Notes: a model not told the origin generated them from the sequence alone. A stretch of 64,000 nt of DNA from Pseudomonadota bacterium (GCA_021787435.1 JAJYLY010000008.1:6319-70318), one strand, 5' to 3'. Positions 2,389 to 24,051 are shown, counted from the stretch's first letter. Program-made: numbers and translations.

Positions 2389-3210
2389 ATGACCCACTTA
2401 CCAGAAATCAATCCGAATCAATCCATCGAATTGCTCAAAGAACTGCATATTCTGACGCGCGATGGCAAGCTTAATCAGGACAGCCGACGCAAGCTCAAGC
2501 AGGTATATCACCTGTATCATTTCATCGAACCGCTGCTAGAAGAACTCCTAGCTATCAGGCATGAACTGACATTGGCCGATCACGGCGCTGGAAAATCCTA
2601 CCTAGGGTTCATCCTTTATGATCTGTTCCTGAAATCACACAAAACAGGACACATTTACGGCATCGAAACACGCGAGACGTTGGTAAGGAAATCTCAGGAG
2701 CTTGCAAATAAGCTTGGATTCTCAAGGATGTCTTTTCTGAATCTTTCGGTAGAAGAGTCCATCGATTCCTCGCTCCTCCCAGACCAGATTGATATCGTCA
2801 CAGCATTGCACGCCTGCAATACAGCCACCGACGATGCCATCAAATTCGCCCTGCACAAAGAGGCTCGATTTATTGTGCTCATTCCCTGCTGCCAGGCCGA
2901 AGTCGCAAGCGCGCTCAACAAACACAAAAACCAGTCATTCGGCAAAACACCGCTGTCTGAAATCTGGCGACATCCAATACACACCCGCGAATTCGGCAGT
3001 CATCTGACCAATGTGCTTCGCTGCCTGCTGCTGGAGTCTAAAGGTTACCAGGTCAAAGTGACTGAGTTGGTCGGCTGGGAACACTCTATGAAAAACGAAC
3101 TGATCATTGCGCGTCGCACAGAGCAGCCGCGCAAGGATGCAAAGATGCGACTGGAATACATCCTGAAGGAATTAAACTTGGAAAGCCTGCAAGACCGCTT
3201 CATTTATTGA
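2389..3210 (+). CDS. class I SAM-dependent methyltransferase (family not resolved)
   Basis: 273-aa ORF with a glycine-rich motif-I-like segment (LADHGAGKSYLGF) followed by acidic loop motifs typical of Rossmann-fold methyltransferases. Confidence 0.55.
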   Translation: MTHLPEINPNQSIELLKELHILTRDGKLNQDSRRKLKQVYHLYHFIEPLLEELLAIRHELTLADHGAGKSYLGFILYDLFLKSHKTGHIYGIETRETLVRKSQELANKLGFSRMSFLNLSVEESIDSSLLPDQIDIVTALHACNTATDDAIKFALHKEARFIVLIPCCQAEVASALNKHKNQSFGKTPLSEIWRHPIHTREFGSHLTNVLRCLLLESKGYQVKVTELVGWEHSMKNELIIARRTEQPRKDAKMRLEYILKELNLESLQDRFIY

Positions 3211-3334: not shown

Positions 3335-4153
3335 ATGGATGCCATTACATTAAAAGGGGGCGAGCATGCCGTATTGTTGTTGCACGGCCTGCAAAGCAGC
3401 CCAGCAGAACTGCAGCCGATTGCCAAGCGACTTCATCAGGCTGGCTACACAGTGCATGCGCCGCATATCAAAGGATATGGCTTTACGCACGGCGACACAC
3501 CGCGTTCAGTGACGTCCTGGCAAAACTGGCATGCCAGCGCGCTGAAAGAATTTCGCGAACTCAAACTGCAATACCATACCGTTGCAGTGGGCGGGCTGTG
3601 CATAGGCGCCACCCTTGCCTTGAGCATCGCGGCAGAGCTTGCAGATGAGTTGTCCGCTCTAACTTTGCTTTCCACCACTCTGTGGTATGACGGATGGGGC
3701 ATCCCTTGGTACCGATCTTTACGCCACATCGGCTATTATTCACCTTTTCGCTATGTTTACAGCTACCGCGAGCGCGAGCCGTTTGGGCTGAAAAACAAAC
3801 AACTGCGCAAATGGATCGCGCGTGAAATGAGTCACAAAGACTCATCTATTGTCGGCGCCAGCAAACTGAATTTACCGGCGATACAAGAGGCAGAACGCAT
3901 GATCGTTGCAGTAAAAAAATCCATGCATCGGATCACAGCGCCTGCCATCATCATCCACGCCGAAGAAGATGAAATCGCTTCCCCTCGCAACGTCCGCTTC
4001 GTGTCGGAGCATATCGGCTCAAAAGTGGTGAAAATTGTGATGTTGCATAACAGCTACCATATGATTACAGTAGACAATGACAGAGAACAGGTAGCCAGTG
4101 AAACCATAGATTTTTTCAACACGTACATCCTTGCATCGTCAAGCCATACCTAA
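3335..4153 (+). CDS. Est/COG1647-type alpha/beta hydrolase with Cys in the nucleophile elbow
   Basis: HG oxyanion motif (LLLHGL), elbow VGGLCIGATLAL (Cys89, TGC at 3599-3601), an acid residue in HAEEDEIAS, and His in NSYHMITVD. It is collinear with Bacillus-type carboxylesterase from memory. Confidence 0.75.
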   Translation: MDAITLKGGEHAVLLLHGLQSSPAELQPIAKRLHQAGYTVHAPHIKGYGFTHGDTPRSVTSWQNWHASALKEFRELKLQYHTVAVGGLCIGATLALSIAAELADELSALTLLSTTLWYDGWGIPWYRSLRHIGYYSPFRYVYSYREREPFGLKNKQLRKWIAREMSHKDSSIVGASKLNLPAIQEAERMIVAVKKSMHRITAPAIIIHAEEDEIASPRNVRFVSEHIGSKVVKIVMLHNSYHMITVDNDREQVASETIDFFNTYILASSSHT

Positions 4154-4289
4154 CAACACTGTGAAACACAAGGAACCTTATCCCAATAACAAGTTGAAAT
4201 TCGCCCGCGTGTTTGCGCCTTGAAAGCGCATCATTTAGGTGCAGATTCGGTTATAATCTTATCCGAGTAATTATTTAACACCCATTACC

Positions 4290-4529
4290 ATGAGTTCATT
4301 ACCTACCATACAGCGCATGATGGTCGAGCAGTTTGACCTTAAACTTGAAGACTTGACGCCGGATGCCACCCTGGAAAGCCTAGGGCTGGATTCGCTATCT
4401 GTCATCGAGTTCATGTTCAATCTTGAGGACGAACTCAAGATCAAACTACCGGACGAACGGGTGGAGCTCAAGACCTTGCAGGATGTGATCAATCTGGTTG
4501 ACAGGATAGTCGCCGAGCAATCGGCGTGA
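4290..4529 (+). CDS. acyl carrier protein (dedicated, non-AcpP-like)
   Basis: 79 aa with the phosphopantetheine attachment motif LGLDSLSVIEF. Its stop overlaps the start of the next gene. Confidence 0.85.
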   Translation: MSSLPTIQRMMVEQFDLKLEDLTPDATLESLGLDSLSVIEFMFNLEDELKIKLPDERVELKTLQDVINLVDRIVAEQSA

Positions 4530-5779
4530 TCAATGCCATGTCCAGGCGCGTTGTCATCACCGGATTAGGCATCGTTTCACCGACAGGATCATCACCCGAG
4601 CAGTTCTTTAGCAACCTGATGCTTGGCCGCTCCGGCATCAAACGCTTGAATCGTCCTTTTGCTGATCAGCTCTCGATACGCATTGCCGCCCCCGTGGACG
4701 ACTTCAACCCGGCTGCGCACTTTTCCAAGATACAACTCACCGGCATCGAACGTTTCAGCCAGCTTGCCCTAGTTGCTGCCGAACAAGCAATACACGATGC
4801 CCGACTGACTCTGAGTGAGCAGGAATATCAACGTGCTGGCGTATATATGGGCTCGTGCCTGGGTGGCGCGGGCACGCTGGAAGACGGTTACATCGAAGTC
4901 TTCAAACACGACAGTCCACGAATCAAGCCGCTCAGCGTACTTCTCAGCATGAATAATGCCGCAGCTTCACATCTTTCCATCAAGTATCACCTGCAAGGAC
5001 CCAACATCACTTATGCCACTGCGTGCTCATCTTCGGCGATTGCCTTGGGTGAAGCATACCGCCAGATCAAACACGGTTATGCAGACGTGATGCTGGCAGG
5101 CGGCTCTGAAGCGATGCTGACATTGGGCGCAATGAAAGCCTGGGAAGCCTTGCGCACCGTTGCTCACGAAGATCCGAATGATCCTGGCGCATCCTGCAAA
5201 CCGTTTGCAAAGGATCGCAGCGGTCTCGTGCTGGGCGAAGGCGCTGCAGTGTTGGTGCTGGAAGACGCCCAGCGTGCGTTACAGCGGGGAGCCACGATAT
5301 ATGCAGAACTGGCAGGCTATGACTGCTCATCGGATGCAAGCCATATCACCAAACCGGATTCTATTGGGCAGACGCGCACCATCCTCAATGCCCTAAAGGA
5401 TGCCGGACTGCAACCTGAAGATATCAATTATGTGAACGCGCACGGCACAGCGACCCTAGCTGGCGACATAGAAGAAACCAAAGCCATCAAACAGGTGTTC
5501 GGCTCTCATGCCTACAAGCTTCCAATCAGCTCGACAAAATCCATGCATGGCCATCTGATGGGTGCGACCGGTGCAGTCGAGTTCATGGCCGCTGTCCTCG
5601 CAATGCAGCACAATTCAATCCCCCCTACCATCAACTTGCATCTGCCCGATCCCGAGTGCGATCTAGATTACGTTCCAAATCAAGGCAGAACCGATATCCC
5701 ACTCAATGCCGTGATGTCCAATTCATTCGCATTCGGTGGCACGAATGCGGTACTGATCGCCCGCCGCTTTGCGGTTTAG
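4526..5779 (+). CDS. beta-ketoacyl-ACP synthase, FabF/NodE-like (KAS II family)
   Basis: Active-site Cys in TACSSSAIALGEA and two His in NAHGTATLAGD and KSMHGHLMGATG, plus a C-terminal NSFAFGGTNAVL motif. Confidence 0.9.
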   Translation: MINAMSRRVVITGLGIVSPTGSSPEQFFSNLMLGRSGIKRLNRPFADQLSIRIAAPVDDFNPAAHFSKIQLTGIERFSQLALVAAEQAIHDARLTLSEQEYQRAGVYMGSCLGGAGTLEDGYIEVFKHDSPRIKPLSVLLSMNNAAASHLSIKYHLQGPNITYATACSSSAIALGEAYRQIKHGYADVMLAGGSEAMLTLGAMKAWEALRTVAHEDPNDPGASCKPFAKDRSGLVLGEGAAVLVLEDAQRALQRGATIYAELAGYDCSSDASHITKPDSIGQTRTILNALKDAGLQPEDINYVNAHGTATLAGDIEETKAIKQVFGSHAYKLPISSTKSMHGHLMGATGAVEFMAAVLAMQHNSIPPTINLHLPDPECDLDYVPNQGRTDIPLNAVMSNSFAFGGTNAVLIARRFAV

Positions 5780-5791
5780 CACGCTTCCTTC

Positions 5792-8700
5792 ATGTCCATG
5801 AAGGAATTTAATCTTTCTGCATGGGCACTCAAACATCCAGCTTTGATGCTCTACACGCTGTGCGCGCTTCTTTTTGCCGGCATTTTCTCCTATACACAGC
5901 TGCCGCAAAATGAAGACCCCGACTTCACATTCAGGGTAATGAGCATCAAACTGCTTTGGCCGGGTGCAAGCGCAAGTGAAGTCGAACAGCAACTCACCAA
6001 CCCGGTTGAACGAAAATTACAGCAAACACCCTGGCTGGATAATGTCAGCAGTTACTCCAAAGCAGGCGAAGCGGGAATTTACATCACGCTCAAGGACGCG
6101 ATGCCACCAGCACAACTTGAACCCAGTTGGAACCAGGTTCGCAAAGAATTGGCAGACATGCGCCTGCCTGATGGCGTTGCAGCGCCAGTCATCAACGACC
6201 ATTTCGGCCAAACCTTTACTGCAATCTATGCCTTCACCTCAAAATCGCTAAGCAATGCCGAGCTTGCTCATGAGGCACGAGTTGTGCGCGATGAATTGCT
6301 AGGCATAGCAAATGTCAGCCGTGTCGAATTGATCGGCATCCAGCCGGAAAGAGTATATATTGATTTAAATGACAAAGCCAAAACCGGCATCAACCCATGG
6401 CAAATCGCATCTGCATTAAAAGCCCAGAATGAAATCCAGTCTGCCGGAGAAATAAACACTTATCTTGACGTGATACGACCGCGCGTGAACGGTCATCTCG
6501 ATTCCGTCAAAAGCATACAGAACTTCTCATTTCAAGCAGACGGAAAAAGCTATCACCTGAATGATATCAGTCACGTTTACCGCTCCTATACTGATCCCGC
6601 CACTTTCAAGATGCGCACCATGGGGCAGGAGGCAGTCGGCCTTGCCATTGCGATCTCGCCCCAGGGCAATGTCACCCAGCTTGGCAAGGATCTTGAACAA
6701 GAATTTGCTAGCATCAAAAAAAAGCTGCCGGCAGGGATAGAGATTCATCAGATATCCGATCAGTCCCATGTAGTCAGAAAATCCATCGCTGAATTCATGA
6801 AGGCTCTGCTGGAAGCTTTCGCGATTGTGCTGGCGGTGAGTTTCATAAGCCTGGGTCCGCGTGCAGGCTTGGTGGTGGGACTGTCGATTCCGCTGGTGCT
6901 AGCAGGAACCTTTCTGCTGATGCATCTGCTTGGCATCGACTTGCAACGCGTATCCCTTGGTGCATTGATCATCGCACTGGGACTTCTGGTAGACGATGCG
7001 ATGATCACCGTTGAGATGATGAAAGTAAAACTGGAGCAAGGTTACAGCAAATTGCACGCCGCAACCTTTGCCTACACCAGCACCGCATGGCCAATGCTGA
7101 CAGGCACGATGATCACGGCAGCAGCATTTTTGCCCGTAGGCCTTGCGAAGTCTTCTGCCGGTGAATACACCTTTTCAATTTCTGTTGTCGTGACCATCGC
7201 CTTGCTGATCTCCTGGCTGGTTGCGGTGATCTATATACCGTTCATCGGCTTTCATCTGCTGAAAAAAAACAAGCAGCCCGCATTGCTCGATGATCACTAT
7301 CGCAGCGGTTTCTATTTGTACTTCAGGCGTGTGGTTGAATGGTGTCTTGAATACAGAAAGAGCGTGATTGCACTCACACTGATTGCCTTTGCACTGGCTC
7401 TTGCCGGATTTTTCAAGCTGCAGCAGGATTTTTTTCCGCCGTCTGAGCGAACAGAACTCCTGATGGATATATGGCTACCGGAAGGCACCAGCTTCTCCAC
7501 CACAGAAAGACTGACCATCGGCCTCGAACAGGATTTAATGAATGATCCCGATATCGTCAATTACACCAGTTATATCGGCGGTGGAACACCCAGATTCTAT
7601 CTGCCGCTCGAACTGGAACTGCCTGCCATCAATTATGCGCAAATCGTCATCAACACTCGCGACATAAAATCACGCGAGGTCGTACTCAAACGCGTACGCA
7701 GCATGCTGGACAAGGATTATGCAGCGATGGGAATACGCATCGCGAGACTGGAAAATGGCCCACCAGTCGGGTTCCCGATACAGTTCAACGTGACCGGAAA
7801 AGACCCGGGGAAACTCCGCGGCATCACCAGAGAAATCGCAGCCGTTGTCAGACACAATCCCAACACCAAAAATGTCAATCAGGATTCCAGCGAAAAAATA
7901 CGAATCCTCAATGTGACGCTCGATCAGCAGAAGAGCCTTCTACTTGGCTTGTCATCCGATGCAGTTTCCAGAAGCCTGCGTACATTTTTGTCTGGGCTTC
8001 CAGTCACGGTTTTTGGCGAGAATAACCAGCGCATCGAAGTCATCGAACGAGCCGCGCATCACGACGATCCTGATGCGCTAGGTCAAATGAATGTCTATAC
8101 TGATCAGGGAAGATCGGTGCAGCTCAACCAAATTGCCAAAATCAGCGAATCCGAGGAAGAAGGCATCATCTGGCACATGAACCGAATGCCTGTGGTGACT
8201 GTGCGCGCCGAGGTTCCTGACAATGTGCCTGCTTTAGATGTAAGCATGGTAATCGACCGGCAACTCGCCACGATTCGTGCAAACCTACCAGAAGGCTATC
8301 GCATCGAAATGGGGGGTGCAATGGAGGGCAGCAATCAGGCACAGGACTCAATCATTGCGATTTTGCCGCTGATGGGCTTTATCATCGTCACCTTGCTGAT
8401 ATTCCAGCTCAAAAAATACAAGCCCGTCGCATTGGCCTTGTTCACGGCACCGCTGGGCATCATCGGCGTGACCACAACCCTGCTTGCATTTCACGTGCCA
8501 TTCGGATTCGTTGCAATGCTGGGCACCATTTCACTGTCCGGCATGATCATGCGCAACTCGGTCATCCTGCTCGATCAAATCAGCCAGAATGCAGAGCTGG
8601 GCTCATGGGATGCTATCGTCGAATCCACCGTGCGTCGCTTCCGCCCCATCGTGCTGACGGCAGCCGCCGCAATCCTGGCGATGATACCTTTGACCCGCAG

Positions 8701-8836
8701 CGTTTTCTGGGGACCGATGGCCATTACCATCATGGGCGGCCTTCTCATCGCAACGCTGCTAACCCTGTTTTGCCTACCGGCACTGTATGCGCTGTGGTAC
8801 AAAGTTGAGCGCCCTGGCGGGAAAGCGCCCAATTAA
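5792..8836 (+). CDS. RND superfamily permease (AcrB/AcrD/AcrF fold), no adjacent adaptor or outer-membrane factor
   Basis: 1014 aa with a 12-TM two-large-loop organisation and typical N-terminus (SAWALKHPALMLYTLCALLFAGIFSYTQLPQNEDPDFTF). It starts 12 nt after the KAS stop. Confidence 0.9.
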   Translation: MSMKEFNLSAWALKHPALMLYTLCALLFAGIFSYTQLPQNEDPDFTFRVMSIKLLWPGASASEVEQQLTNPVERKLQQTPWLDNVSSYSKAGEAGIYITLKDAMPPAQLEPSWNQVRKELADMRLPDGVAAPVINDHFGQTFTAIYAFTSKSLSNAELAHEARVVRDELLGIANVSRVELIGIQPERVYIDLNDKAKTGINPWQIASALKAQNEIQSAGEINTYLDVIRPRVNGHLDSVKSIQNFSFQADGKSYHLNDISHVYRSYTDPATFKMRTMGQEAVGLAIAISPQGNVTQLGKDLEQEFASIKKKLPAGIEIHQISDQSHVVRKSIAEFMKALLEAFAIVLAVSFISLGPRAGLVVGLSIPLVLAGTFLLMHLLGIDLQRVSLGALIIALGLLVDDAMITVEMMKVKLEQGYSKLHAATFAYTSTAWPMLTGTMITAAAFLPVGLAKSSAGEYTFSISVVVTIALLISWLVAVIYIPFIGFHLLKKNKQPALLDDHYRSGFYLYFRRVVEWCLEYRKSVIALTLIAFALALAGFFKLQQDFFPPSERTELLMDIWLPEGTSFSTTERLTIGLEQDLMNDPDIVNYTSYIGGGTPRFYLPLELELPAINYAQIVINTRDIKSREVVLKRVRSMLDKDYAAMGIRIARLENGPPVGFPIQFNVTGKDPGKLRGITREIAAVVRHNPNTKNVNQDSSEKIRILNVTLDQQKSLLLGLSSDAVSRSLRTFLSGLPVTVFGENNQRIEVIERAAHHDDPDALGQMNVYTDQGRSVQLNQIAKISESEEEGIIWHMNRMPVVTVRAEVPDNVPALDVSMVIDRQLATIRANLPEGYRIEMGGAMEGSNQAQDSIIAILPLMGFIIVTLLIFQLKKYKPVALALFTAPLGIIGVTTTLLAFHVPFGFVAMLGTISLSGMIMRNSVILLDQISQNAELGSWDAIVESTVRRFRPIVLTAAAAILAMIPLTRSVFWGPMAITIMGGLLIATLLTLFCLPALYALWYKVERPGGKAPN

Positions 8837-9875
8837 CATGCTCTCTTACCAGCTCTGATGCATGGCTTGCGCGAGTTTGCAGCGCGGCAACCAACGCCGT
8901 ATTACTAGGCGCATTTCCCATCGCCACTGCGATATTGCGCAACCATTGTTCATGGCCGATACGATAAATTGCACTGCCGGCCAATTTTTCACGAAACTCA
9001 TTCTCGTCCCATGCGAACAATTTCACGAGACTGACATCATCCAATCCATTGCGCACCTCAAAATCAGGTTCCGATGTCATCTTTGCGAAGCGATTCCACG
9101 GGCACACCAGCTGACAGTCATCACAACCATATATACGGTTTCCAATCAGAGGTCGCAACGCTATTGGAATGCTCCCCTTGAGTTCGATGGTGAGATAGGA
9201 AATGCAGCGTCTCGCATCCAGCAGGTAAGGCGCGACGATGGCCTGCGTCGGACAAATCTCGATGCAGCGCGTGCAACTTCCACAATGTGCACTCTCCAGA
9301 TGATCCACAGGAAGTGGAAGATTGGTGTAAATTTCGCCCAGAAAAAACCACGATCCCGCATCCTGTGACAGCAACAGCGTGTGTTTTCCGCGCCAACCCA
9401 GGCCGGATTTTCTTGCCAGCGCCACCTCCATCACCGGCGCGCTGTCGACGAATACGCGCCCTTCGAATTCTGCAACTGCGATGCGTATCTTCTCTTCCAA
9501 CTGCGACAGTCGCTTGCGCATCAGCTTATGGTAATCGCGCCCCAACGCATAACGCGAAATAAAGGCGGATTCCCCCTGTTGCAACACCTCCCAGCTGTCC
9601 CGGACTTCTGGCGGCAGATAATTCATGCGCACGCTGATCACGCGCACCGTACCTGCCAGCAAATCCGCAGGACGGCTGCGCCTTATGCCATGTTTTGCCA
9701 TATAATCCATCTGTCCATGAAAACCTTGTGCCAGCCAGTCTAATAAACCGGTTTCAGCCTCTGCAAGATCCGTATTCGCAATACCCGTGGCCTGAAAACC
9801 GAGCTCATGCGCCCAACCGCGTATGTTTTCGGCCAGTTTTTCATACTGCACTGATTGAGGATTTAAATTTTGCAT
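8745..9875 (-). CDS. queG: tRNA epoxyqueuosine(34) reductase
   Basis: Two 4Fe-4S motifs (CGSCTRCIEICPTQA, CDDCQLVCPWN) and a HEAT-like C-terminus. I take the start at ATG 9875 (MQNLNP...) rather than the longer ORF. It is divergent from tsaE, as in E. coli. Confidence 0.85.
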   Translation of the reverse strand: MQNLNPQSVQYEKLAENIRGWAHELGFQATGIANTDLAEAETGLLDWLAQGFHGQMDYMAKHGIRRSRPADLLAGTVRVISVRMNYLPPEVRDSWEVLQQGESAFISRYALGRDYHKLMRKRLSQLEEKIRIAVAEFEGRVFVDSAPVMEVALARKSGLGWRGKHTLLLSQDAGSWFFLGEIYTNLPLPVDHLESAHCGSCTRCIEICPTQAIVAPYLLDARRCISYLTIELKGSIPIALRPLIGNRIYGCDDCQLVCPWNRFAKMTSEPDFEVRNGLDDVSLVKLFAWDENEFREKLAGSAIYRIGHEQWLRNIAVAMGNAPSNTALVAALQTRASHASELVREHVNWALSRQGAQLCTTAHTVPVGKTGLAALR

Positions 9876-10334
9876 GACCACGATGATAGCCGAATCACCC
9901 TTGACCTCGCTGATGAAAATGCAACCACAGCACTGGCAAGACGCCTGACCGCGCAACTCAAACCCGGCATGGTCATTTATCTCAATGGCGACCTGGGCGC
10001 AGGAAAAACCAGCCTAGTGCGCGGAGTATTAAATGCATTGGGCCACACCGGCCACGTAAAAAGCCCAACCTATACCCTGCTTGAACCCTACCATGTCGGC
10101 GGGTTAGACTTGCGCCACTTTGACCTGTATCGTTTGCAGGATGAAAATGAATGGGAGCAGGCTGGTTTCCGCGATGAGTTTGACGGCAACAATATTCTTT
10201 TCATCGAATGGCCGGAAAAAGCGCCAGTCCCGCCAGCCGACATCGTGATCGATCTCGTCATTTTGCAACAGGGGCGCCGTGCTATCATGATAAGCAACAC
10301 CGCTATAGGAAAAGCATGTCTAAAGCTGCTATAA
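9870..10334 (+). CDS. tsaE: tRNA t6A37 biosynthesis ATPase TsaE
   Basis: P-loop YLNGDLGAGKTSLVRGVL and SPTYTL motif. Only an in-frame TTG at 9870 precedes the conserved region. Confidence 0.85.
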   Translation: MHDHDDSRITLDLADENATTALARRLTAQLKPGMVIYLNGDLGAGKTSLVRGVLNALGHTGHVKSPTYTLLEPYHVGGLDLRHFDLYRLQDENEWEQAGFRDEFDGNNILFIEWPEKAPVPPADIVIDLVILQQGRRAIMISNTAIGKACLKLL

Positions 10335-11614: not shown

Positions 11615-12159
11615 ATCAGCGATTACTCAGGATATTGAGCGGTTCAGCCGTACGTATCCCCATGCGCTGCAAAACAAATTTACGCGCATCCTCAACAGAC
11701 CGGTAGGTCATAGTGCGGCGGTCAATTTATTTCTTGAAGCGAAGGCGGGCACAGAAATTCGCAACAAGTGTGGCCGGTTACGTTTGATCTCTGCCGAATT
11801 CTACGGACATGATGTTGATCTCGATTTGCAGCTTCATCGAAAATGCGATGACAACGCACAGAATATGGAAAGAAATACTGCCTTGCACTGGGCAGCTTTT
11901 AACGGGCATACTCCAAGCGCCACCCGCATAATTGAGCATCATGCAAAAATCGATGTGCGGAACATCAGGCTGTACCCCTACGATGCAGGCGACTGCGCAC
12001 AACCATGTAAACTTCGTCACACGACTGATCGCCGCCGGCGCAAATCTAGATAGCACCGCCATCGCTCGCTGCTTGCCACAGACGGTTCAGCCTTGTGAAA
12101 CTTCAATGGTGCAGGCCGCTTCAATAAGAGCGAATGGGCTGACTCTTACACATGTATAG
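11598..12159 (+). pseudogene. ankyrin-repeat protein, apparently frameshifted near 11958-11965
   Basis: Frame 0 carries ANK-like repeats (NTALHWAAFNGHTPSATRIIEHHAKIDVRN). The next repeat (SGCTPTMQATAHNHVNFVTRLIAAGANLDS) is only readable in the +1 frame (track ORF 11932..12159). Confidence 0.4.
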
Positions 12160-13231
12160 CAGCAGATCCCGCATTGTCTGAATGTGTTGCAAATGCCATG
12201 CCGGATTCATCATTATGTAAATCATCAAACGGGCTAGGCCTAGACCTGTCCATGCGTCCGCGAAACCAGAACAAACAAGACACAACCATTAAAAGCGAGG
12301 CGAACGTTACAACGAGGTTTTTCCATTCATCCGGGGATTGAACGACAGATGCAGCCTTGGTCTTGTTAGCTTCACTATGGATGCTTGCAGACAACGCACT
12401 CGCTGCATCTACACCGCTTGCACTCACCCCTCTTGCCGCAACAACCCCGCTCGCCGTCATATCGACTGCGGTCCGGCCAGCCTGTTTCTCTTCCAAATCC
12501 CTGATCACCAGTTGCATTTCGCCAATCTGCAACTTGAGATCATTGAGCAGTTTCTCCTTGGCGATCAACTCTTCCTGCAGTGCATCGTTGTTCGCACTGG
12601 CTGACATTGAAGGGTCGTATCTGGATATCGTCAACGACATGGAAAGTTTCATCTGACGATGGTCGTCCTGAAAGTTCCTGATTTCCACCGCCTTGTGATG
12701 ATGACTCTTGTGAGAGTTCAAGATTTTAACTGGTTCTCTCATCGGCGCATCAGATTTAACGACTGCTGGCGGCGCGACTTCCATAGGCGCGTGTGCCTGT
12801 CGCGCATCTTCATTAGGATCTACAGGTAAATTGGCGGCAGGATCAAGCAAAACAGTGTATGACTTGACCAGTTTGCCTGCGACAGAGGTGGTTTCAATCA
12901 ATAGATGAACGAAAGGATCAACCACCGGGCGCAGCGATGTCACCCGTATATAGGATTGTTTTCCAGGCTCATTGACCAGTTGAAAGCGAATCTTGTGATT
13001 ATTGGGATAGATCAGGCCAAGTTTTTTATAATCCTGGTCGTCTGCTAGGCGCACCTTGAATTGCTGCGCTTCCGCGTCGGTCAGTTCGACAATGACGATC
13101 CGTGCTTTAAGCGGCTGGCCTAGGGCGCTGTCCAACTGAATATCATCCCCCAGTACCATCGCATTGGCATCCGCCATAAAAACAGCTGCCATAAAGAACA
13201 TCCACAGTTGCTGAATTACCCCCTGTAACAC
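12146..13231 (-). CDS. FimV/HubP-family N-terminal-domain protein (short form with coiled coil and C-proximal TM)
   Basis: Signal peptide, then LGDDIQLDSALGQPLKARIVIVELTD...SYTVLLDP, which matches the FimV N-terminal domain pattern. A coiled coil (LQEELIAKEKLLNDLKLQIGEMQL) and a TM segment (LVVTFASLLMVVSCLFWF) follow. Confidence 0.65.
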   Translation of the reverse strand: MLQGVIQQLWMFFMAAVFMADANAMVLGDDIQLDSALGQPLKARIVIVELTDAEAQQFKVRLADDQDYKKLGLIYPNNHKIRFQLVNEPGKQSYIRVTSLRPVVDPFVHLLIETTSVAGKLVKSYTVLLDPAANLPVDPNEDARQAHAPMEVAPPAVVKSDAPMREPVKILNSHKSHHHKAVEIRNFQDDHRQMKLSMSLTISRYDPSMSASANNDALQEELIAKEKLLNDLKLQIGEMQLVIRDLEEKQAGRTAVDMTASGVVAARGVSASGVDAASALSASIHSEANKTKAASVVQSPDEWKNLVVTFASLLMVVSCLFWFRGRMDRSRPSPFDDLHNDESGMAFATHSDNAGSAAIHV

Positions 13232-13297: not shown

Positions 13298-13720
13298 TCA
13301 GGCTGGATCAAGAAGAAAAGTATAGGATCTGATCTGCCTGCCTGAACCGGATGAAATTTCCATCACAAGATCGTTGAGTGGATCATCTAACGATTGTTCT
13401 GTGGTCACAACGATATAGGGTTGTTTACCAGACTCATGCACCAGTTGAAAATGAAACTTGCACCCAAGTGGGTATTGCAAACCGAGTTTTCTGTAATCCT
13501 GATCGTCTGCCAGACGCACCTTAAATTGCTGCACATCTGCATCCGTCAGCTCGGCAATCGATATCCGCGCATTGAGCGGCTGACCTATCGTGCTGTCCAC
13601 GTGAATGTCGCCCAACAACAGCGCATTTGCTTGCGACATAAAAAAAACAGCCATGGAGAGCATCCATAGCCACCTCTTTGCATGTATTTTGCTTTTCATT
13701 ATCATCAGCAGTGTGATCAT
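13298..13720 (-). CDS. stand-alone FimV-N-terminal-domain paralog (140 aa)
   Basis: LGDIHVDSTIGQPLNARISIAELTDADVQQFKVRLADDQDYRKLGLQYP...SYTFLLDPA* is closely parallel to the first ~135 aa of the neighbouring gene and stops right after the domain. The start may be the internal MKSK at 13699. Confidence 0.6.
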   Translation of the reverse strand: MITLLMIMKSKIHAKRWLWMLSMAVFFMSQANALLLGDIHVDSTIGQPLNARISIAELTDADVQQFKVRLADDQDYRKLGLQYPLGCKFHFQLVHESGKQPYIVVTTEQSLDDPLNDLVMEISSGSGRQIRSYTFLLDPA

Positions 13721-15613: not shown

Positions 15614-16507
15614 TCAGCTTCGCCCCCCCTGCACTGCCAGGGTGCCTGTGCGCCCTTCGATTTCGCGCATCAGCACTTCGTGCCTTGGCAAGTCACCCAA
15701 TCCTTGCAGATATTGCTGCATGGATACCAGCTCATAGCCTTGTTTCTGCCAACCCTGCAACAGCTTTTCAAAAATCGGCATCCATTTTCCACCCTCGAGC
15801 TCTGCATGCAAAGTATATACATGATCTCTCACAAGCGCCGTCTGTTGCAAAAGATGCTCCGCAACATTCTCCAGGGTAATGCCATCGCGATTGACCAGTT
15901 CATCCAGTGTTGGCAAGGTGGTGGGCAGCTCTGGACAAGCAACGATCTCCGCTTGCCAGGTTGGAATGAAAGGATGCGTGCCCCGTGTATTCGAACAATA
16001 GTCAAAACCCATGTGTTGCATCAGACGCAGCGCATGCCGGTTCATCTGCCAACCGGCCGCTGCATGCGCATGCGGTGCCTCACCGAAAATTGCCTTATAA
16101 CGGTCAACTGTACGCTGCAACTCCCGCTCTGTCCACTTTGCATCCTTGTGCGCGACATTGTCCTGCCAGCGGATATGGTCAAAACAGTGTATGCCCGCTT
16201 CAAATCCTTCTTCGCGCACCCCGCGCATGATGTCCGCACAGCGTTTTCCGATATCCGGCGAGGGCAACAAGGTACCATACAACAGCGTCTTGATGCCGTA
16301 GTGTTCCAACACTGAAGTACGCGACACCTTGCCTAAAAACCCTTTGCGGAATACCCGTCTGATCGCGCGCCCAGTATGATCGGGGCCAAGAGAAAAGAAA
16401 AAAGTTGCCTGCGCGTGATAGCGCTTCAGCACTTCAACAAGACGCGGAACCCCTTCGCGTGTGCCGCGATAGGTGTCCACATGAACCTGAAGGGCAAGTT
16501 TATTCAT
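15614..16507 (-). CDS. arnD: 4-deoxy-4-formamido-L-arabinose-phosphoundecaprenol deformylase
   Basis: MNKLALQVHVDTYRGTREGVPRLVEVLKRYHAQATFFFSLGPD parallels the E. coli ArnD N-terminus. Start moved to ATG 16507, because the longer TTG-initiated ORF only translates the palindromic element upstream. Confidence 0.85.
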   Translation of the reverse strand: MNKLALQVHVDTYRGTREGVPRLVEVLKRYHAQATFFFSLGPDHTGRAIRRVFRKGFLGKVSRTSVLEHYGIKTLLYGTLLPSPDIGKRCADIMRGVREEGFEAGIHCFDHIRWQDNVAHKDAKWTERELQRTVDRYKAIFGEAPHAHAAAGWQMNRHALRLMQHMGFDYCSNTRGTHPFIPTWQAEIVACPELPTTLPTLDELVNRDGITLENVAEHLLQQTALVRDHVYTLHAELEGGKWMPIFEKLLQGWQKQGYELVSMQQYLQGLGDLPRHEVLMREIEGRTGTLAVQGGRS

Positions 16508-16524
16508 ATCAGGGCTGAGGACTT

Positions 16525-16594
16525 GGGATTGAGGATTGAGGTAATGCGAAAAATCTATATGCAATTATAACTCTATCCTCGCTCCCCAATCCTG
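16525..16594. repeat. imperfect palindromic intercistronic element, copy A (arnA-C-domain gene / arnD junction)
   Basis: + strand arms GGGATTGAGGATTGAGG (16525-16541) and CCTCGCTCCCCAATCCTG (16577-16594), with a ~35-nt AT-rich loop starting TAATGCGAAAAATC. Homologous to copy B. Confidence 0.7.
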
Positions 16595-16597
16595 CTC

Positions 16598-17638
16598 TTA
16601 ATCCATCAGCTTGCGCGCTTCAGCAACCTGCCCGCGATATGCATCGAAGATATTGCGCAAGGTGTCCGCCATGGTAATCACGGGTTTCCAGTTTAACTCA
16701 TCACAGGTATTAGTGATTTTGGGAACGCGGTTTTGAACATCCTGATAGCCTTTGCCATAGTATGCGGCCGACGTGGTTTCGACGATCTTCACCTGCTGCG
16801 CAGATTCGCGATATTCAGGGTATTCCCCGGCCAGTTTCAGCATCATGTCGGCCAGATCGCGGATCGCAAAATTGTTCAAAGGATTGCCGATGTTGTATAT
16901 CTTGCCTGTGGCGATACCGCCCTTGTTCTCGATGATCTTCATCAGCGCATCTATGCCGTCGTCAATATAGGTGAAGGCGCGCTTTTGCAACCCGCCATCC
17001 ACCAGACTGATGTTCTCGCCTCGCACGATATGCCCCAGGAATTGGGTGACCACGCGCGAGCTGCCTTCCTTCGCGGTATGGATTGAATCCAGCCCGGCAC
17101 CGATCCAGTTGAATGGACGGAAAAGCGTGAAATTCAGCCCTTCCATACCATAGCCCCAGATCACGCGATCCATCAGCTGTTTGGAACAGGAATATATCCA
17201 GCGCGGCTTGTTGATCGGTCCGCAGATCAGTTCGGAATTCTCGGGGTCGAATTCCTCGTCATGGCACATTCCATAAACCTCCGATGTCGAAGGAAAGACC
17301 AGATGCTTGCCGTATTTCACCGCCGCGCGCACGATAGGAAGATTGGCCTCGAAATCCAGTTCGAACACGCGCAATGGTTGTTTCACATAAGTGGAAGGCG
17401 TTGCAATCGCAACCAGCGGCAGGATCACATCGCATTTCTTGACATGATACTCAACCCATTCCTTGTTGATGGTGATGTCGCCTTCAAAAAAATGAAAACG
17501 TTCATGACCGATCAGGTCGCTGATGCGATCAGCGCTCATATCCATCCCATACACTTCCCAGTCGGTAGTATTCAGAATGCGCTTGGAAAGATGGTGACCG
17601 ATAAAACCGTTCACGCCCAGTATCAATACTTTTTTCAT
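16598..17638 (-). CDS. arnA: UDP-glucuronate oxidative decarboxylase (ArnA C-terminal-domain homolog, separate gene)
   Basis: MKKVLILGVNGFIGHHL Rossmann motif and SDR catalytic YSCSK. AAGGAAG SD upstream of ATG 17638 (7-nt spacer). Confidence 0.85.
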   Translation of the reverse strand: MKKVLILGVNGFIGHHLSKRILNTTDWEVYGMDMSADRISDLIGHERFHFFEGDITINKEWVEYHVKKCDVILPLVAIATPSTYVKQPLRVFELDFEANLPIVRAAVKYGKHLVFPSTSEVYGMCHDEEFDPENSELICGPINKPRWIYSCSKQLMDRVIWGYGMEGLNFTLFRPFNWIGAGLDSIHTAKEGSSRVVTQFLGHIVRGENISLVDGGLQKRAFTYIDDGIDALMKIIENKGGIATGKIYNIGNPLNNFAIRDLADMMLKLAGEYPEYRESAQQVKIVETTSAAYYGKGYQDVQNRVPKITNTCDELNWKPVITMADTLRNIFDAYRGQVAEARKLMD

Positions 17639-17648
17639 GATGACTTCC

Positions 17649-18632
17649 TTAACAATTAAACTCAAACCTTTGGGTGCCGTACTTGCCGGCAAATTCTGCT
17701 GCACTGACCTCGCGACCATCCAGTTCAAAGCGCACGATCTCAAGCGTGCCTTGACCGCAGATTGCGTAGGCCCGCCCACCTTCAACATAGAAAGCGGGCT
17801 TCCCAGTCGCAGTGCCTTTTGCCAGAAGCGTCTGCAATATCCGCATCGGCATATTCATCAGTCGCGTCATCGCACCCGGATAAGGGGGGGCTACAGCACG
17901 CACCAGATTGTGTATATCTCTTGCGGATTGCTGCCAGTCGATCACACCATCCTCAGCGCGACGTCCGCCAAAATAAGCACCCAGACTCAAATCCTGTTTC
18001 ACTCTGGGCGCACAACCCGCCAGCAGTTCAGGTAGGATCTGATTCAACGCCATCTCGGCCGCCACGGTCACTTTCTGAAACACCTGTAGCGCATTATCAT
18101 CGGGCAATATCGGCACGGCCTGTTGTGCAACGATGTCGCCGTTATCCGGTTTCTCGGTCATGTAATGCAAGGTCGCGCCCGTTTCAGTCTCACCACGGAT
18201 TATCGCCCAATTTACCGGCACACGGCCACGATATTTTGGCAGCAATGATCCGTGCATATTCAACGCGCCTGCTTTGGGAATAGCCAGCAGCGGCGCTTTG
18301 AGCATCTCTCGATAATAAAATGAAAAGAAAAAATCCGGGCGCAAAGCGGCGATCTTCTCAACCACCTCAGGCACATTCGGGTTAACCGGCGTGATCACTT
18401 CAATATTATGCAACGCCGCCAGATCGGCAACACTCTCAAACCAGATATTTTCATTCTGATTGTCGCGGTGGGTGACAACGAGTCTCACATCCACCCCGTG
18501 CGCAAGCAGCACGGAAAGACAGCGCACCCCCACGTTGTGGTAGGCAAAGACAACGGCTGATACACAAGGATTGAGGTTTGAGGTTTGCGAAAATCCCTTT
18601 AGCTCGTATGCTGACTCCAATTCGCCCCTCAC
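17649..18632 (-). CDS. arnA: UDP-L-Ara4N formyltransferase (ArnA N-terminal-domain homolog, separate gene)
   Basis: AVVFAYHNVGVRCLSVLLAHGVDVRLVVTHRDN parallels the E. coli ArnA N-terminus, with an HxSLLPxxRG-type motif (MHGSLLPKYRG). The only in-frame starts are GTG 18632 (GTGA overlap with the arnC stop) or TTG 18620, so about 25 N-terminal codons translate repeat copy B. Confidence 0.85.
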   Translation of the reverse strand: MRGELESAYELKGFSQTSNLNPCVSAVVFAYHNVGVRCLSVLLAHGVDVRLVVTHRDNQNENIWFESVADLAALHNIEVITPVNPNVPEVVEKIAALRPDFFFSFYYREMLKAPLLAIPKAGALNMHGSLLPKYRGRVPVNWAIIRGETETGATLHYMTEKPDNGDIVAQQAVPILPDDNALQVFQKVTVAAEMALNQILPELLAGCAPRVKQDLSLGAYFGGRRAEDGVIDWQQSARDIHNLVRAVAPPYPGAMTRLMNMPMRILQTLLAKGTATGKPAFYVEGGRAYAICGQGTLEIVRFELDGREVSAAEFAGKYGTQRFEFNC

Positions 18633-18658
18633 TCCTCGATCCTCAATCCTGAATCCTG
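18567..18658. repeat. imperfect palindromic intercistronic element, copy B (arnC / formyltransferase junction)
   Basis: + strand arms GGATTGAGGTTTGAGG (18569-18584) and CCTCGATCCTCAATCC(TGAATCCTG) (18634-18658). The left arm is followed by TTTGCGAAAATC, as in copy A. Confidence 0.7.
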
Positions 18659-19588
18659 TTTTTCCAACACGGCTTCAACCAGATAGCGCGGCCTGTGACG
18701 CACCTGCTGATAGATGCGCCCGACATATTCACCCAGCAGACCGATGCCAAAAAGCGTGATGCCGATCAGGAAAAAAGCAATCGCGAACAGTGTGAACAAA
18801 CCTTCCGCTTCAGGACCGATGATGAGCCGGCGCACCAACAGGAATACCACGAAGAACGCGGACAGCACCGAAATCGCGATGCCCAGCATCGAAAACATCT
18901 GCAGCGGCACAACGGAAAAACCTGTCATCAGATCAAAATTGAGGCGGATCAGGCTGTACAGCGAATACTTAGACTCGCCGGCGGCGCGCTCCTCGTGGCC
19001 CACGACCACTTCTGCGGGATTGCGCGCAAAGCTATAGGCCAAGGCCGGAATGAAGGTATTCACTTCCTTGCAGCTGTTGATAGCATCGATGATCCCTCTA
19101 TCATAGGCGCGCAGCATGCAACCCTGGTCAGTAATCTTGATGCGCGTGATGCGCTCGCGCAGACTGTTCATCGCGCGCGATGCGACATGCCGCCACCAGC
19201 TGTCATTACGCTGCCTGCGGATCGAACCGACATAGTCATAGCCCTCGTCCATCTTGGCCAGCAGATTACCAATGTCCTCAGGAGGATTTTGCAAATCCGC
19301 ATCCAGCGTCACCATGCGTTGCCCGAGTGCATGCTCGAATCCGGCCATGATGGCCATGTGCTGACCAAAGTTGCCCTTGAACAGAATCACCCGTGTCACA
19401 TCAGGACGTTTCTGGAACTGTTCGCGCAGGATCGCGGCAGAACGATCACGGCTGCCATCGTTGATGAACAGAATTTCATACGTGGTCCCGAGCTTATCGA
19501 GAGCCGGATACAATCGGCCGAACAGGGCTTCCAAGCCTTCTTCCTCGTTATAGACGGGGATGATCACGGATAATTGCAAGGTATTCAT
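18629..19588 (-). CDS. arnC: undecaprenyl-phosphate 4-deoxy-4-formamido-L-arabinose transferase (GT2)
   Basis: LSVIIPVYNEEEGLEALFGRL...FINDGSRDRS GT2 signature and two C-terminal TM helices. Start taken at ATG 19588. Confidence 0.85.
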   Translation of the reverse strand: MNTLQLSVIIPVYNEEEGLEALFGRLYPALDKLGTTYEILFINDGSRDRSAAILREQFQKRPDVTRVILFKGNFGQHMAIMAGFEHALGQRMVTLDADLQNPPEDIGNLLAKMDEGYDYVGSIRRQRNDSWWRHVASRAMNSLRERITRIKITDQGCMLRAYDRGIIDAINSCKEVNTFIPALAYSFARNPAEVVVGHEERAAGESKYSLYSLIRLNFDLMTGFSVVPLQMFSMLGIAISVLSAFFVVFLLVRRLIIGPEAEGLFTLFAIAFFLIGITLFGIGLLGEYVGRIYQQVRHRPRYLVEAVLEKQDSGLRIEE

Positions 19589-19895
19589 GGGGCGGCATTC
19601 TACCGCATGGAGCAAGGTTAGCGAAATCTGCTTCAAACAACACCGTTTACTCAGTGATTAATTTTTTTTCATGTTAGTCGACGCTGCCATTGCTTCAGTA
19701 CAATCTCACGAGTCCGGTGACCCTCTTTAAATTCCTGACTGACCTGTTGCAGCAGATCTGTTGTTCAACCCAGGACGCCGGGTTTGGCTCAATATACCCG
19801 GCATGCCTTCCTTCTTCTTCTGGCATGATGCAGTCTGAGGAGAATGCCTTGTTACTTGTTTCTGCCATGACCACCGCATGATCCGGGAATAAAAC

Positions 19896-21143
19896 ATGCG
19901 CAACATTCATAAGCTCGTCGTCACGCGCCTGATCATTGGATGGATTTTACTGTCCGTGATGCTGGGTGGGATCGTCTATTACATCGAGCTGCAAAAAGTT
20001 GGGAAATTTGTTTTTGATCTTGCAACGGTGGAATCCCGCTTGTTTACCGGCACTGTCGATCGCAACAGCGCCCGCCGGAAAGATGAGCTAACAAAGCGGG
20101 CTGACGAATTTCTCAAGCAGCATTTCGTCGTTATCGAGCTTTATGATACAAACAAGCACCAGATCCTTCACGCAGAAAGACCGGGCGATGAAACGATTGA
20201 AAATAAACTGAATCAGTTACTGGACGCATTCCCGCTGGGAGATGCAATGCGCTACAAACAGTTCCTGATTGAGAGAAACTCATTTCTGCAGGTGATGTTG
20301 CCGCTGCGGGATGCCAGAGGAGAGCTGATAGGTTATTTCAAAGGCGTCTACCAGGTGGATGCCAAAACCCTGCACAATATCGAAATCGATATTTCTGGCA
20401 CATTGCTGCTGGTCGTCGTGGTGATCCTCATTACAACCATCATGCTCTACCCTATCATCATTTCCCTCAATAAAGGCCTGGTAAAGCTCTCGTCCGACCT
20501 TTTGAGCGGCAATATCGAACTGATGGATGTGCTGGGCAGCGCCATTGCAAAACGGGATTCCGATACCAACAGTCATAATTACCGGGTCACCATTTATGCG
20601 ATTCGTTTCGCCGAATTGCTAAATCTTTCCAGCACGGAAATCCGCAAACTGATCGCAGGCGCATTTTTGCATGACGTGGGCAAGATAGGTATCAGGGACA
20701 ATATATTGCTCAAACCTGTCAGCCTGACTGACGATGAGTTTGCGGTCATGCGCACCCATGTGCTGCTCGGTGCCGACATCATCAGCAGATCGAAATGGTT
20801 GACGGGTGCAAGAGAAGTGGTGGAATTTCATCATGAGAAATTTGACGGCAGCGGATACATGAAAGGGCTTGCCGGAAATGCAATCCCGTTAAACGCGCGC
20901 ATATTTACAATCGTCGACGTGTTCGATGCACTCACATCGAAACGTCCATACAAAGAACCGTTCGGATTCGAAAAAGCCATGGAACTCATGATGCCGGATA
21001 GTGGAAAGCGTTTCGATCCCGAGTTGCTACGCATATTTAATGAGAAAGCACGTGTGCTTTATCAAGAAATATCTCACGCTCCCGATGATGCTCTGGAGTC
21101 CATAATGAACACTTTGATCAGACAACATTTTTTTCGGAACTGA
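19896..21143 (+). CDS. membrane-anchored HD-GYP-family c-di-GMP phosphodiesterase (GYM variant)
   Basis: Two TM segments flank a ~140-aa periplasmic region. HD motif FLHDVGKIG, then HHEKFDGSGYMKGL. Confidence 0.85.
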   Translation: MRNIHKLVVTRLIIGWILLSVMLGGIVYYIELQKVGKFVFDLATVESRLFTGTVDRNSARRKDELTKRADEFLKQHFVVIELYDTNKHQILHAERPGDETIENKLNQLLDAFPLGDAMRYKQFLIERNSFLQVMLPLRDARGELIGYFKGVYQVDAKTLHNIEIDISGTLLLVVVVILITTIMLYPIIISLNKGLVKLSSDLLSGNIELMDVLGSAIAKRDSDTNSHNYRVTIYAIRFAELLNLSSTEIRKLIAGAFLHDVGKIGIRDNILLKPVSLTDDEFAVMRTHVLLGADIISRSKWLTGAREVVEFHHEKFDGSGYMKGLAGNAIPLNARIFTIVDVFDALTSKRPYKEPFGFEKAMELMMPDSGKRFDPELLRIFNEKARVLYQEISHAPDDALESIMNTLIRQHFFRN

Positions 21144-21151
21144 ATGGAAAC

Positions 21152-22534: not shown

Positions 22535-22553
22535 AATCCTTGCATATGCCGTG

Positions 22554-23678: not shown

Positions 23679-23679
23679 T

Positions 23680-24051
23680 TTATGCTCGCGAAATAATGAC
23701 GACACCCAGGATGATTATTGCCATGCCGATGAGCTTGGTCGGATTGAATGCCTCCCCCAGAAAATACCATGCCGCCAGCGCATTGACCACATAGGCCATG
23801 GACAGCATCGGAAACGCGATGCTCACCGGCACGCGCGACAACGCAAGTATCCACACTACCACGCTGATTCCATAGCAGACCAGGGCTGCGATGATGTGCC
23901 ACTCGGTCCCAAGCTTAAGTCCAATCGGCAGGATATTCTGCATGCTGAATTCAAAATGCCCGATGGCATTGGTGCCGGCCTTCATTAATATCTGCGCGGT
24001 CGCGTTGAGCATCACCCCGGTAAATATCAGCGCGAAGCTGACCAAATTCAT
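23680..24051 (-). CDS. ArnE/ArnF-like small EamA/SMR-type membrane protein (putative L-Ara4N-undecaprenyl phosphate flippase subunit)
   Basis: 123 aa with 4 predicted TM helices. It sits between arnT and arnB with overlapping or abutting stops and starts. Only one such gene is present. Confidence 0.6.
   Translation of the reverse strand: MNLVSFALIFTGVMLNATAQILMKAGTNAIGHFEFSMQNILPIGLKLGTEWHIIAALVCYGISVVVWILALSRVPVSIAFPMLSMAYVVNALAAWYFLGEAFNPTKLIGMAIIILGVVIISRA

Follow-up and report, generated by a model that had tools for sequence, protein, structure and literature searches.

A NodFE-like carrier and ketosynthase pair beside a lone MexK-type permease in a Gallionella-like bacterium: a possible unit of acyl synthesis and efflux

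We describe here a group of genes at positions 4,290 to 8,836 of a 64,000-nucleotide stretch of DNA (GCA_021787435.1 JAJYLY010000008.1:6319-70318; the whole stretch is called the window below), in which a small acyl carrier protein (ACP) and an elongating beta-ketoacyl-ACP synthase (KAS) are followed directly by a single permease belonging to the RND (resistance-nodulation-division) type. Judged by sequence, the ACP and the KAS are dedicated paralogues apart from the housekeeping AcpP and FabF, a separate fatty-acid (fab) cluster being demonstrated at the level of the genus, and the permease is assigned to the HAE-1 pumps of the MexK/TriC clade. An alpha/beta-fold hydrolase with a cysteine in the nucleophile position precedes the pair; hydrolase, ACP and KAS form the invariant core, which the RND gene joins in one lineage. 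Our tentative reading, to which we give a probability of roughly 0.45, is that of a two-part unit in which the permease would be co-transcribed with the ACP and KAS genes and would remove an acyl-derived product or a toxic by-product.

The window is chromosomal DNA from a Gallionella-like betaproteobacterium, an iron oxidizer. The closest protein matches of its open reading frames (ORFs) are in metagenome-assembled genomes (MAGs) of Gallionella and Nitrosomonadales, and the whole stretch is also contained in a mine-drainage metagenome. An earlier note on this DNA had proposed a module that makes an unusual acyl lipid and places or exports it, with an RND protein likened to those of the HpnN/MmpL type. 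Of that proposal, the dedicated pair, the synteny and the absence of an adaptor have held up, and the HpnN/MmpL-like permease and the trio as a unit have not. The genes and elements referred to below are the following.

2389-3210, + strand: S-adenosylmethionine-dependent methyltransferase of the Methyltransf_32 type (PF13679, 170 bits); an accessory neighbor, outside the core
3335-4153, + strand: monoacylglycerol-lipase/Est30-type protein with an alpha/beta fold, a hydrolase or acyltransferase (PF12146, 75 bits); the partner of ACP-KAS
4220-4257, + strand: conserved intergenic block, a candidate promoter or operator, from an alignment of five Gallionella loci
4290-4529, + strand: dedicated ACP, 79 amino acids (PF00550)
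4538-5779, + strand: dedicated FabF-type elongating KAS, 413 amino acids (PF00109 and PF02801); the ORF reaches up to GTG 4526
5798-8836, + strand: HAE-1 RND permease, assigned to the MexK/TriC clade (PF00873); the ORF starts at ATG 5792
8745-9956, - strand: queG, epoxyqueuosine reductase (TIGR00276, 495 bits); the convergent right-hand boundary, not in the module

The carrier, the ketosynthase and the hydrolase

The ACP matches PF00550 at 50.9 bits and has an isoelectric point of 4.1. Its attachment motif, LGLD-S35-LS, contains Ser35 within the DSL motif that had already been noticed. The start at 4290 is supported by the relatives compared, in which the first nine codons are conserved and the changes fall at third positions. 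In the KAS, residues Cys163, His302, His339, Lys334 and Phe399 correspond to Cys164, His304, His341, Lys336 and Phe401 of E. coli FabF (precursor numbering), so that the active site is complete, with Cys, His, His, Lys and the gate Phe present; the elongating Cys-His-His type previously assigned to this protein is borne out by the alignment. Since all KAS orthologues are called at 413 amino acids and begin 5-10 nucleotides (nt) past the ACP stop, the start is likely ATG 4538 (MSRRVVITGLG), at a spacer of 8 nt. The overlap of the ACP stop and the KAS start at 4526-4529, as first described, is thereby lost, GTG 4526 being merely the start of the longest ORF, and what stays is the close packing of the two genes.

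Both proteins fall below the cut-offs of the housekeeping equivalog models: the ACP scores 47 against TIGR00517 (acyl_carrier; cut-off 70.45), and the KAS 477.9 against TIGR03150 (fabF; cut-off 493.75). The ACP is 35% identical to E. coli AcpP, 31% to Gallionella AcpP, a protein that shares 74% of its residues with the E. coli one, and 24% to NodF, and the KAS is 43% identical to E. coli FabF, 42-45.5% to the housekeeping FabF of Gallionella and 47% to NodE. A canonical (plsX-)fabH-fabD-fabG-acpP-fabF cluster is found in five MAG loci of Gallionella/Gallionellales and in one further locus (L102), and the AcpP and FabF of the Gallionella fab clusters are 73-76% and 57-60% identical, respectively, to their E. 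coli counterparts. A genome-collection scan with the KAS, in which all proteins among the matches listed were at most 56% identical, supplied housekeeping FabF sequences and outgroups, not close orthologues.

In a neighbor-joining (NJ) tree with 200 bootstraps, the KAS proteins of Gallionellaceae form a clade at 100% support, which joins the KAS proteins encoded outside fab clusters in Methylophilaceae, Burkholderiales and others at 99.5%. The super-clade that also takes in S. fredii NodE and leaves housekeeping FabF outside is supported at 93.5%, with the window KAS and NodE on different sub-branches. Placement of the KAS in a FabF/FabB/NodE tree had been put forward as a check, and the result is a grouping with NodE, not with housekeeping FabF. 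Because both proteins score below the equivalog cut-offs, because Gallionella has separate fab clusters, and because the KAS falls in the NodE-containing clade and the genes are laid out as nodF-nodE, the two appear to be a dedicated carrier and synthase in the style of NodF/NodE, in agreement with the pair as originally proposed.

The likeness to the rhizobial NodF/NodE extends to gene order, a small ACP gene being followed by a FabF-type KAS gene at a gap of 7 nt in S. fredii pSfreNXT3b and 8 nt here, and to the lack of a dedicated ketoreductase (KR), dehydratase (DH) or enoylreductase (ER). Unlike in rhizobia, no nod or acyl acceptor genes are nearby in the window, and the partner is the alpha/beta hydrolase with a Cys nucleophile and, in some lineages, the RND permease. 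Pfam scans, which took in nearly all ORFs of at least 90 amino acids in the 64-kb window, found no FabD, FabG, FabH, KR, DH, ER or acyltransferase (AT) domain, and the lack of KR, DH, ER and AT genes stated earlier is thus confirmed. A dedicated ACP and KAS for a special acyl chain are also found in the AcpXL cluster, which serves the synthesis of the very-long-chain acyl group of lipid A; its FabZ, two KAS genes, alcohol dehydrogenase and LpxXL are neither near the window ACP nor anywhere else in the window. The aryl-polyene and xanthomonadin clusters have a dedicated ACP and KAS linked to MMPL-type exporters, which belong to the RND superfamily. These clusters, like that of AcpXL, carry dedicated dehydratase, reductase and acyltransferase genes, whereas the window has none of these, nor an MMPL-type exporter.

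The hydrolase upstream of the ACP finds its nearest solved relatives among the bacterial monoacylglycerol lipases (E 5e-31) and the Est30 esterases. Its nucleophile elbow (residues 87-91) reads G-L-C-I-G, with Cys where the family has Ser, and thus departs from the G-x-S-x-G pattern; Asp212 and His242 are invariant across the aligned relatives. The nucleophile is Cys in Gallionellaceae and Methylotenera, and Ser was found only in L008, from a Methylophilaceae-like MAG. The Cys residue suggests a protein suited to a thioester acyl-enzyme, acting in off-loading, acyl transfer or as a thioesterase, and not a plain esterase. Roles in biotin synthesis (BioC/BioH-like) or as the PEP-CTERM 'hydrolase 2' were considered and rejected, the matches of about 22-27 bits lying far under the cut-offs.

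The hydrolase gene stands upstream of ACP-KAS in every Gallionellaceae locus sampled and also, at about 35% identity, in Methylophilaceae; the locus of Ferrigenium kumadai reads hydrolase-78aa ORF-ACP-KAS-RND. The Methylophilaceae trio is accompanied by a HAD phosphatase, a class-III aminotransferase and UDP-glucose dehydrogenase. Sister KAS-ACP pairs occupy further small clusters in Methylophilaceae (L008, L009 and L012) and Burkholderiales (L015-L017 and L105), of which one type has the order HAD phosphatase-aminotransferase-hydrolase-ACP-KAS-UDP-glucose dehydrogenase and another FabH-like-FAD oxidoreductase-ACP-KAS(-pyridoxal phosphate enzyme). These sister KAS-ACP clusters are uncharacterized pathways that use the same dedicated pair.

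The permease and its missing adaptor

The RND protein, of about 1012-1014 amino acids depending on the start chosen, matches PF00873 over residues 10-1001 at 521 bits. Among solved structures, MexK (1007 bits) and TriC (824 bits) are by far its closest relatives, followed by MdtB at 213 bits and the remaining RND proteins at no more than 213 bits. Identity to MexK is 48% across 982 aligned residues, and residues 5-1011 align end to end with MexK 2-1024 with short gaps only. The architecture is of the AcrB type, with 12 transmembrane helices (TM) and two large periplasmic loops that bear the docking and porter domains, and differs from that of MexK in a shorter linker between TM6 and TM7.

The marks that define the MexK/TriC clade are an Arg replacing Lys in the TM10 relay, a 19-residue switch loop and an 11-residue flexible loop (PMC13450314). 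In the window protein, the proton relay residues D401, D402, R921 and T956 correspond to D402, D403, R932 and T969 of MexK. The switch loop, GGGTPRFYLPLELELPAIN against GTGSPRFYLPLDQQLPAAS in MexK, has the same length of 19 residues, and so does the flexible loop of 11 residues (RLENGPPVGFP against RLENGPPVGYP). MexK binds triclosan in a pocket between TM2, TM3, TM4 and TM6 that has cytosolic access (PMC13450314); six of the seven residues of this membrane pocket are identical in the window protein, V483 being replaced by Ile, and nearly all of the tested tunnel residues whose mutation impaired efflux are identical as well. The relay, pocket and tunnel positions are invariant among 118 members of the clade. 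From these sequence features, we assign the permease to the HAE-1 pumps of the MexK/TriC clade, together with MexJK-OprM/OpmH and TriABC-OpmH of Pseudomonas aeruginosa, with which it shares the relay Arg, both loops, the triclosan pocket and the tunnel residues.

The HpnN/MmpL class considered for the permease in the earlier note was rejected by the profile and structure searches. The HAE3 model TIGR00921 gives 25.6 bits against a cut-off of 351.9, the PDB matches are MexK and TriC, and the window protein has no MMPL (PF03176) match at E<=0.001; some orthologues show a secondary or faint precomputed match to MMPL. The lipid-transporting RND proteins of the HpnN/MmpL3 type likewise have genes without an adaptor beside lipid-type biosynthetic genes, but they belong to a different RND family.

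In the characterized members of the clade, MexJK and TriABC, the permease is part of a tripartite drug pump whose adaptor gene is adjacent (PMC13450314). The window permease departs from them in its operon-like setting with biosynthetic genes of the fatty-acid type, and in its lack of a neighboring adaptor. MexL-MexJ-MexK and the homologues of 46% identity on Azospirillum and Methylovirgula replicons, which read TetR-adaptor-RND with overlapping adaptor and permease genes, have both a TetR gene and an adaptor gene adjacent; the window gene has neither. Pfam scans of the 64-kb window found no adaptor (HlyD) or OEP domain, extending to its whole length the earlier statement that no adaptor or outer-membrane factor gene flanks the permease. 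At E<1, a tblastn search with two MexJ-type adaptors had no match to the window or to the 7-8 kb flanks of the orthologues (ten independent contigs), and the gene calls around the orthologues show no adaptor or OEP domain except for one OEP gene in L103. That gene (L103 1-3) stops shortly before SemiSWEET and lies about 7 kb upstream of the RND gene, with a molybdenum cofactor (MoCo)-dehydrogenase operon inserted between them; it has no equivalent in the window. Because no adaptor lies near any sampled orthologue by tblastn or gene calls, the absence of an adjacent adaptor is a conserved trait of the Gallionellaceae/Mariprofundus RND clade in the sampled contexts. At the positions that contact MexJ, five of nine residues differ in the window protein, including the salt-bridge residue E650, which is Lys here, and these positions vary within the clade; the changes are weak evidence, given the small sample and the location of these residues at the surface.

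Absence of an adjacent adaptor does not equal adaptor-independent function. E. coli AcrD is a precedent, its permease gene having no adaptor gene of its own and the protein using AcrA-TolC. AcrD can take its substrate from the cytoplasm (PMC13450314). As here, it is a lone HAE-1 permease gene, but it belongs to another HAE-1 subclade, and the window protein scores 193 bits against the AcrD model.

Gene order and its possible meaning

The alignment of the KAS-RND junction is conserved from ATGAAGGAA on, and the start at ATG 5798, with a spacer of 18 nt, is therefore favored over ATG 5792, with one of 12 nt. The spacing of 12 nt and the length of 1014 amino acids reported before are correct for the ORF, which begins at ATG 5792; with the favored start, they become 18 nt and about 1012 amino acids. 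Spacers of 12-33 nt separate KAS and RND in most loci. At the other end, the RND stop at 8836 and the queG stop at 8745 give a 3' overlap of 92 nt, as expected from the convergent arrangement already pointed out; the position of queG at the RND 3' end is conserved only among the window-type loci.

Loci were sampled from both ends, by RND-anchored and KAS-anchored look-ups, and a metagenome scan with the RND protein gave 7 loci. KAS is followed by RND in eight other contigs (L004, L005, L006, L088, L089, L091, L103 and L007, the last from Ferrigenium kumadai, AP019536.1), so that the ACP-KAS-RND layout is more than chance. Whenever an RND orthologue of at least 69% identity had upstream sequence (L004, L005, L006, L088, L089 and L091), the KAS gene was directly upstream. 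The KAS-anchored look-ups found the RND gene in L007 and L103 and not in L097 and L104, and about 70 other KAS loci had no RND homologue within 8 kb. The linkage occurs in three flanking contexts, namely sigma54/SemiSWEET/Methyltransf_32...queG, ylqF...rluA-like, and MoCo-dehydrogenase/Methyltransf_32...EamA-rpoD. Among the relatives that bear the unit, identity is 91-97% for the ACP (full length), 83-93% for the KAS, 73-84% for queG and 69-85% for the RND protein. In an NJ tree of RND proteins, the KAS-linked ones group together, with a lone Gallionella copy as their sister. The trio that had been thought conserved is thus syntenic in close relatives, but it is not a conserved unit; the core is hydrolase-ACP-KAS, and each module is also found alone.

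A candidate control element precedes the ACP gene. Five Gallionella loci share the conserved block at 4220-4257, GAAAG.GCATC..TT...GATTC.GTTATAAT (GAAAGCGCATCATTT...GATTCGGTTATAAT), but not the spacer around it; the block ends in TATAAT (4252-4257), 32 nt upstream of the ACP start. We regard this block as a candidate promoter or operator for ACP-KAS-RND. It has no good -35 box and no palindrome, and a simple sigma-70 scan made no call there. A perfect 9-bp AT-rich hairpin at 5785-5806 (TTCCTTCAT/ATGAAGGAA), followed by a T-rich tail, covers both candidate RND starts (z = -2.3). It was considered as a conserved regulator and rejected, as it occurs in the window only and is not conserved in relatives.

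In the two-part unit that we tentatively propose, the KAS would use malonyl units to lengthen an acyl primer carried by the dedicated ACP, the housekeeping FabD, FabG, FabZ and FabI would provide loading and reduction, and the hydrolase would off-load or transfer the finished chain. The RND permease, co-transcribed with ACP-KAS from the promoter-like element upstream of the ACP, would rid the inner membrane or the cytoplasm of a toxic by-product or of the acyl-derived product, a small hydrophobic molecule. It may borrow an adaptor and an outer-membrane factor encoded elsewhere, as AcrD does, or it may release its substrate into the periplasm. Both the MexK tunnel, which is accessible from the cytosol (PMC13450314), and the reported effect of MexJK on alkylquinolones (PMC9323910) would agree, by analogy, with removal from the cytoplasmic side of the membrane. 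Functional coupling of the pump and the lipid genes is, on sequence grounds, plausible. A more specific form, in which the permease without a dedicated adaptor is the export step of a biosynthetic operon and draws the acyl-derived molecule of the cassette from the cytoplasm or inner leaflet through the MexK-type tunnel, seems to us rather unlikely. If it were true, it would supply the first physiological substrate class for the clade, and an HAE-1 pump would have been recruited to biosynthesis.

Several observations weigh against the two-part unit. The evidence for coupling is one of gene order (synteny) only. Hydrolase-ACP-KAS occurs without RND in L097, L104 and Methylophilaceae, and lone RND orthologues of 59-62% identity stand in unrelated contexts in Sideroxyarcus emersonii (AP023423.1), Ferriphaselus amnicola (AP018738.1), Mariprofundus erugo and one Gallionella MAG. 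In L089 and L091, KAS and RND are about 120 nt apart, the hairpin that covers the RND start scored as terminator-like in the window, and three metatranscriptomes of the mine-drainage study contain no contig over the locus. In addition, the pocket and tunnel residues are equal in the RND identity classes of the KAS-linked type (at least 65.5%) and the lone type (below 63.5%), and there is thus no sign of substrate specialization.

The strongest alternative, though we consider it somewhat unlikely, is that the adjacency is inherited and not functional. The permease would then be a general efflux permease for hydrophobic compounds, an AcrD-like orphan with its adaptor and outer-membrane factor elsewhere, which has been carried beside an unrelated cassette since one Gallionellaceae ancestor. 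Such a history would accord with the tripartite drug pumps that are the characterized members of the clade (PMC13450314), with the TetR-adaptor-RND order of the 46% homologues, with docking and porter domains that align with those of MexK without large deletions, and with the OEP gene about 7 kb upstream in L103. Both modules are also found apart, the pocket residues do not distinguish the linked from the lone class, and, because the linked RND proteins cluster together in the NJ tree, one rearrangement is enough to explain the linkage. However, the linkage has been kept through RND divergence to 69% and at least three changes of flank, the spacers are very short, and no adaptor is found in the 64 kb of the window or in the 7-8 kb around the sampled orthologues. 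The positions of the salt-bridge and hydrogen-bond contacts with MexJ also vary in the clade, while the transport path is invariant. If the adjacency is merely historical, the region is an ordinary one.

In the version of the earlier note, ACP-KAS makes an unusual acyl lipid that the permease, an adaptor-free lipid translocase of the inner membrane with a function like that of HpnN or MmpL3, places in the envelope. The adaptor gene missing in every sampled context, the unconserved MexJ-contact positions and the cytoplasmic-side route through the TM domain of MexK-type pumps (PMC13450314) would fit such a function. We nevertheless find it improbable, as the sequence is outside the HpnN/MmpL family (25.6 bits against 351.9 for HAE3), the docking domain and exit funnel are complete as in tripartite pumps, the MexK pocket suits small molecules and not bulky lipids (PMC13450314), and no acyltransferase or glycosyltransferase genes are conserved with the unit. 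The permease groups with the drug-efflux HAE-1 pumps, and the trio is syntenic in related genomes; the idea of the earlier note is therefore weakened, not refuted.

It is very improbable that the product of hydrolase-ACP-KAS is a metabolite used inside the cell or a precursor of a cofactor, such as a pimelate-like compound or another short dicarboxyl/acyl one, for which export would be unnecessary and the permease irrelevant. Hydrolase-ACP-KAS is indeed widespread without RND, the Methylophilaceae cassette sits with a class-III aminotransferase and an HAD phosphatase, and the L008 hydrolase matches BioH and BioV weakly (about 22 bits). Yet these matches are far under cut-offs of 150-207 bits, the models for BioH, BioV and BioC do not match the hydrolase of the window at E<=0.001, no conserved bio genes are nearby, and the aminotransferase fits many families better than BioA. 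Finally, that the ACP and KAS are the housekeeping acpP and fabF products of the organism is effectively refuted at the genus level: although the KAS passes the broad NCBIfam subfamily PRK07314 (477 bits against 387), both proteins are below the equivalog cut-offs, the pair lies outside any fab cluster, in a window that lacks fabD, fabG and fabH, the fab-cluster AcpP of Gallionella is 73-76% identical to that of E. coli against 35% for the window ACP, and the clade of the KAS is a separate one.

Taken singly, the genes are new members of known families. In the searchable literature, we found no relevant description of an ACP-KAS-RND system or of Gallionellaceae RND pumps, nor one of a NodFE-like cassette with a Cys alpha/beta hydrolase and a MexK-clade permease; the same is true of a permease clade without an adjacent adaptor in all sampled contexts. 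MexJK and TriABC are known chiefly for pumping triclosan, and, as to natural substrates, nothing beyond an effect on alkylquinolone signaling is reported (PMC9323910). If the operon-like link is true, it would point to fatty-acyl-derived metabolites as native substrates of MexK-type pumps, and it would agree with the transport path, accessible from the cytosol, that was described in 2026 (PMC13450314). The permeases of the clade that lacks an adjacent adaptor, known here from Gallionellaceae and one Mariprofundus, may borrow an adaptor or may work alone. Hydrolase-ACP-KAS in itself is a highly conserved, uncharacterized lipid or signal pathway of iron oxidizers.

Other features of the window

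Upstream of the hydrolase, the Methyltransf_32 gene is present in L004, L005, L006, L088 and L103 and not in L007, L097 or L104. In the window, the stop of the SemiSWEET gene (2099-2392) overlaps the start of the Methyltransf_32 gene (2389-3210) by 4 nt (ATGA); in relatives, there is a gap or SemiSWEET is uncalled. A sigma-54 activator gene at 402-1865 on the - strand, divergent from SemiSWEET-Methyltransf_32, encodes a VpsR-type N-terminal domain, and its best match, below the cut-off, is to the model of the PEP-CTERM-box regulator. A sigma-54 promoter tying the unit to this VpsR-like activator was rejected, as the intergenic regions upstream gave no match and fewer matches than expected by chance were counted across the window.

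Further along, the window contains form I RuBisCO, an arn-like cluster for lipid A modification, lpxK, kdsB and hflKC. The arn-like cluster (15614-25700, - strand), of the lipid A aminoarabinose type, comprises a deacetylase, an ArnA-like epimerase, a GT2 protein, a DegT aminotransferase, a small EamA/SMR protein and ArnT. HD-domain and ClC-channel genes on the + strand interrupt the cluster, and lpxK and kdsB follow at 29.7-31.6 kb. Just downstream of the RuBisCO genes cbbLSQO, an ORF of 506 amino acids (42712-44232) joins a SAICAR synthetase part (PurC, residues 16-268) to a beta-carbonic anhydrase part (residues 331-490); this could be a genuine fusion, or else two separate genes that were read together. 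On the - strand at 26344-26706, an ORF of 120 amino acids matches only positions 158-230 of the 370 of T2SSE, the type II/IV secretion ATPase, and is probably a gene remnant. Two neighboring ORFs on the same strand (12146-13231 and 13298-13720) each begin with a FimV N-terminal domain; in relatives, this place is taken by one long FimV-like gene and a short one.

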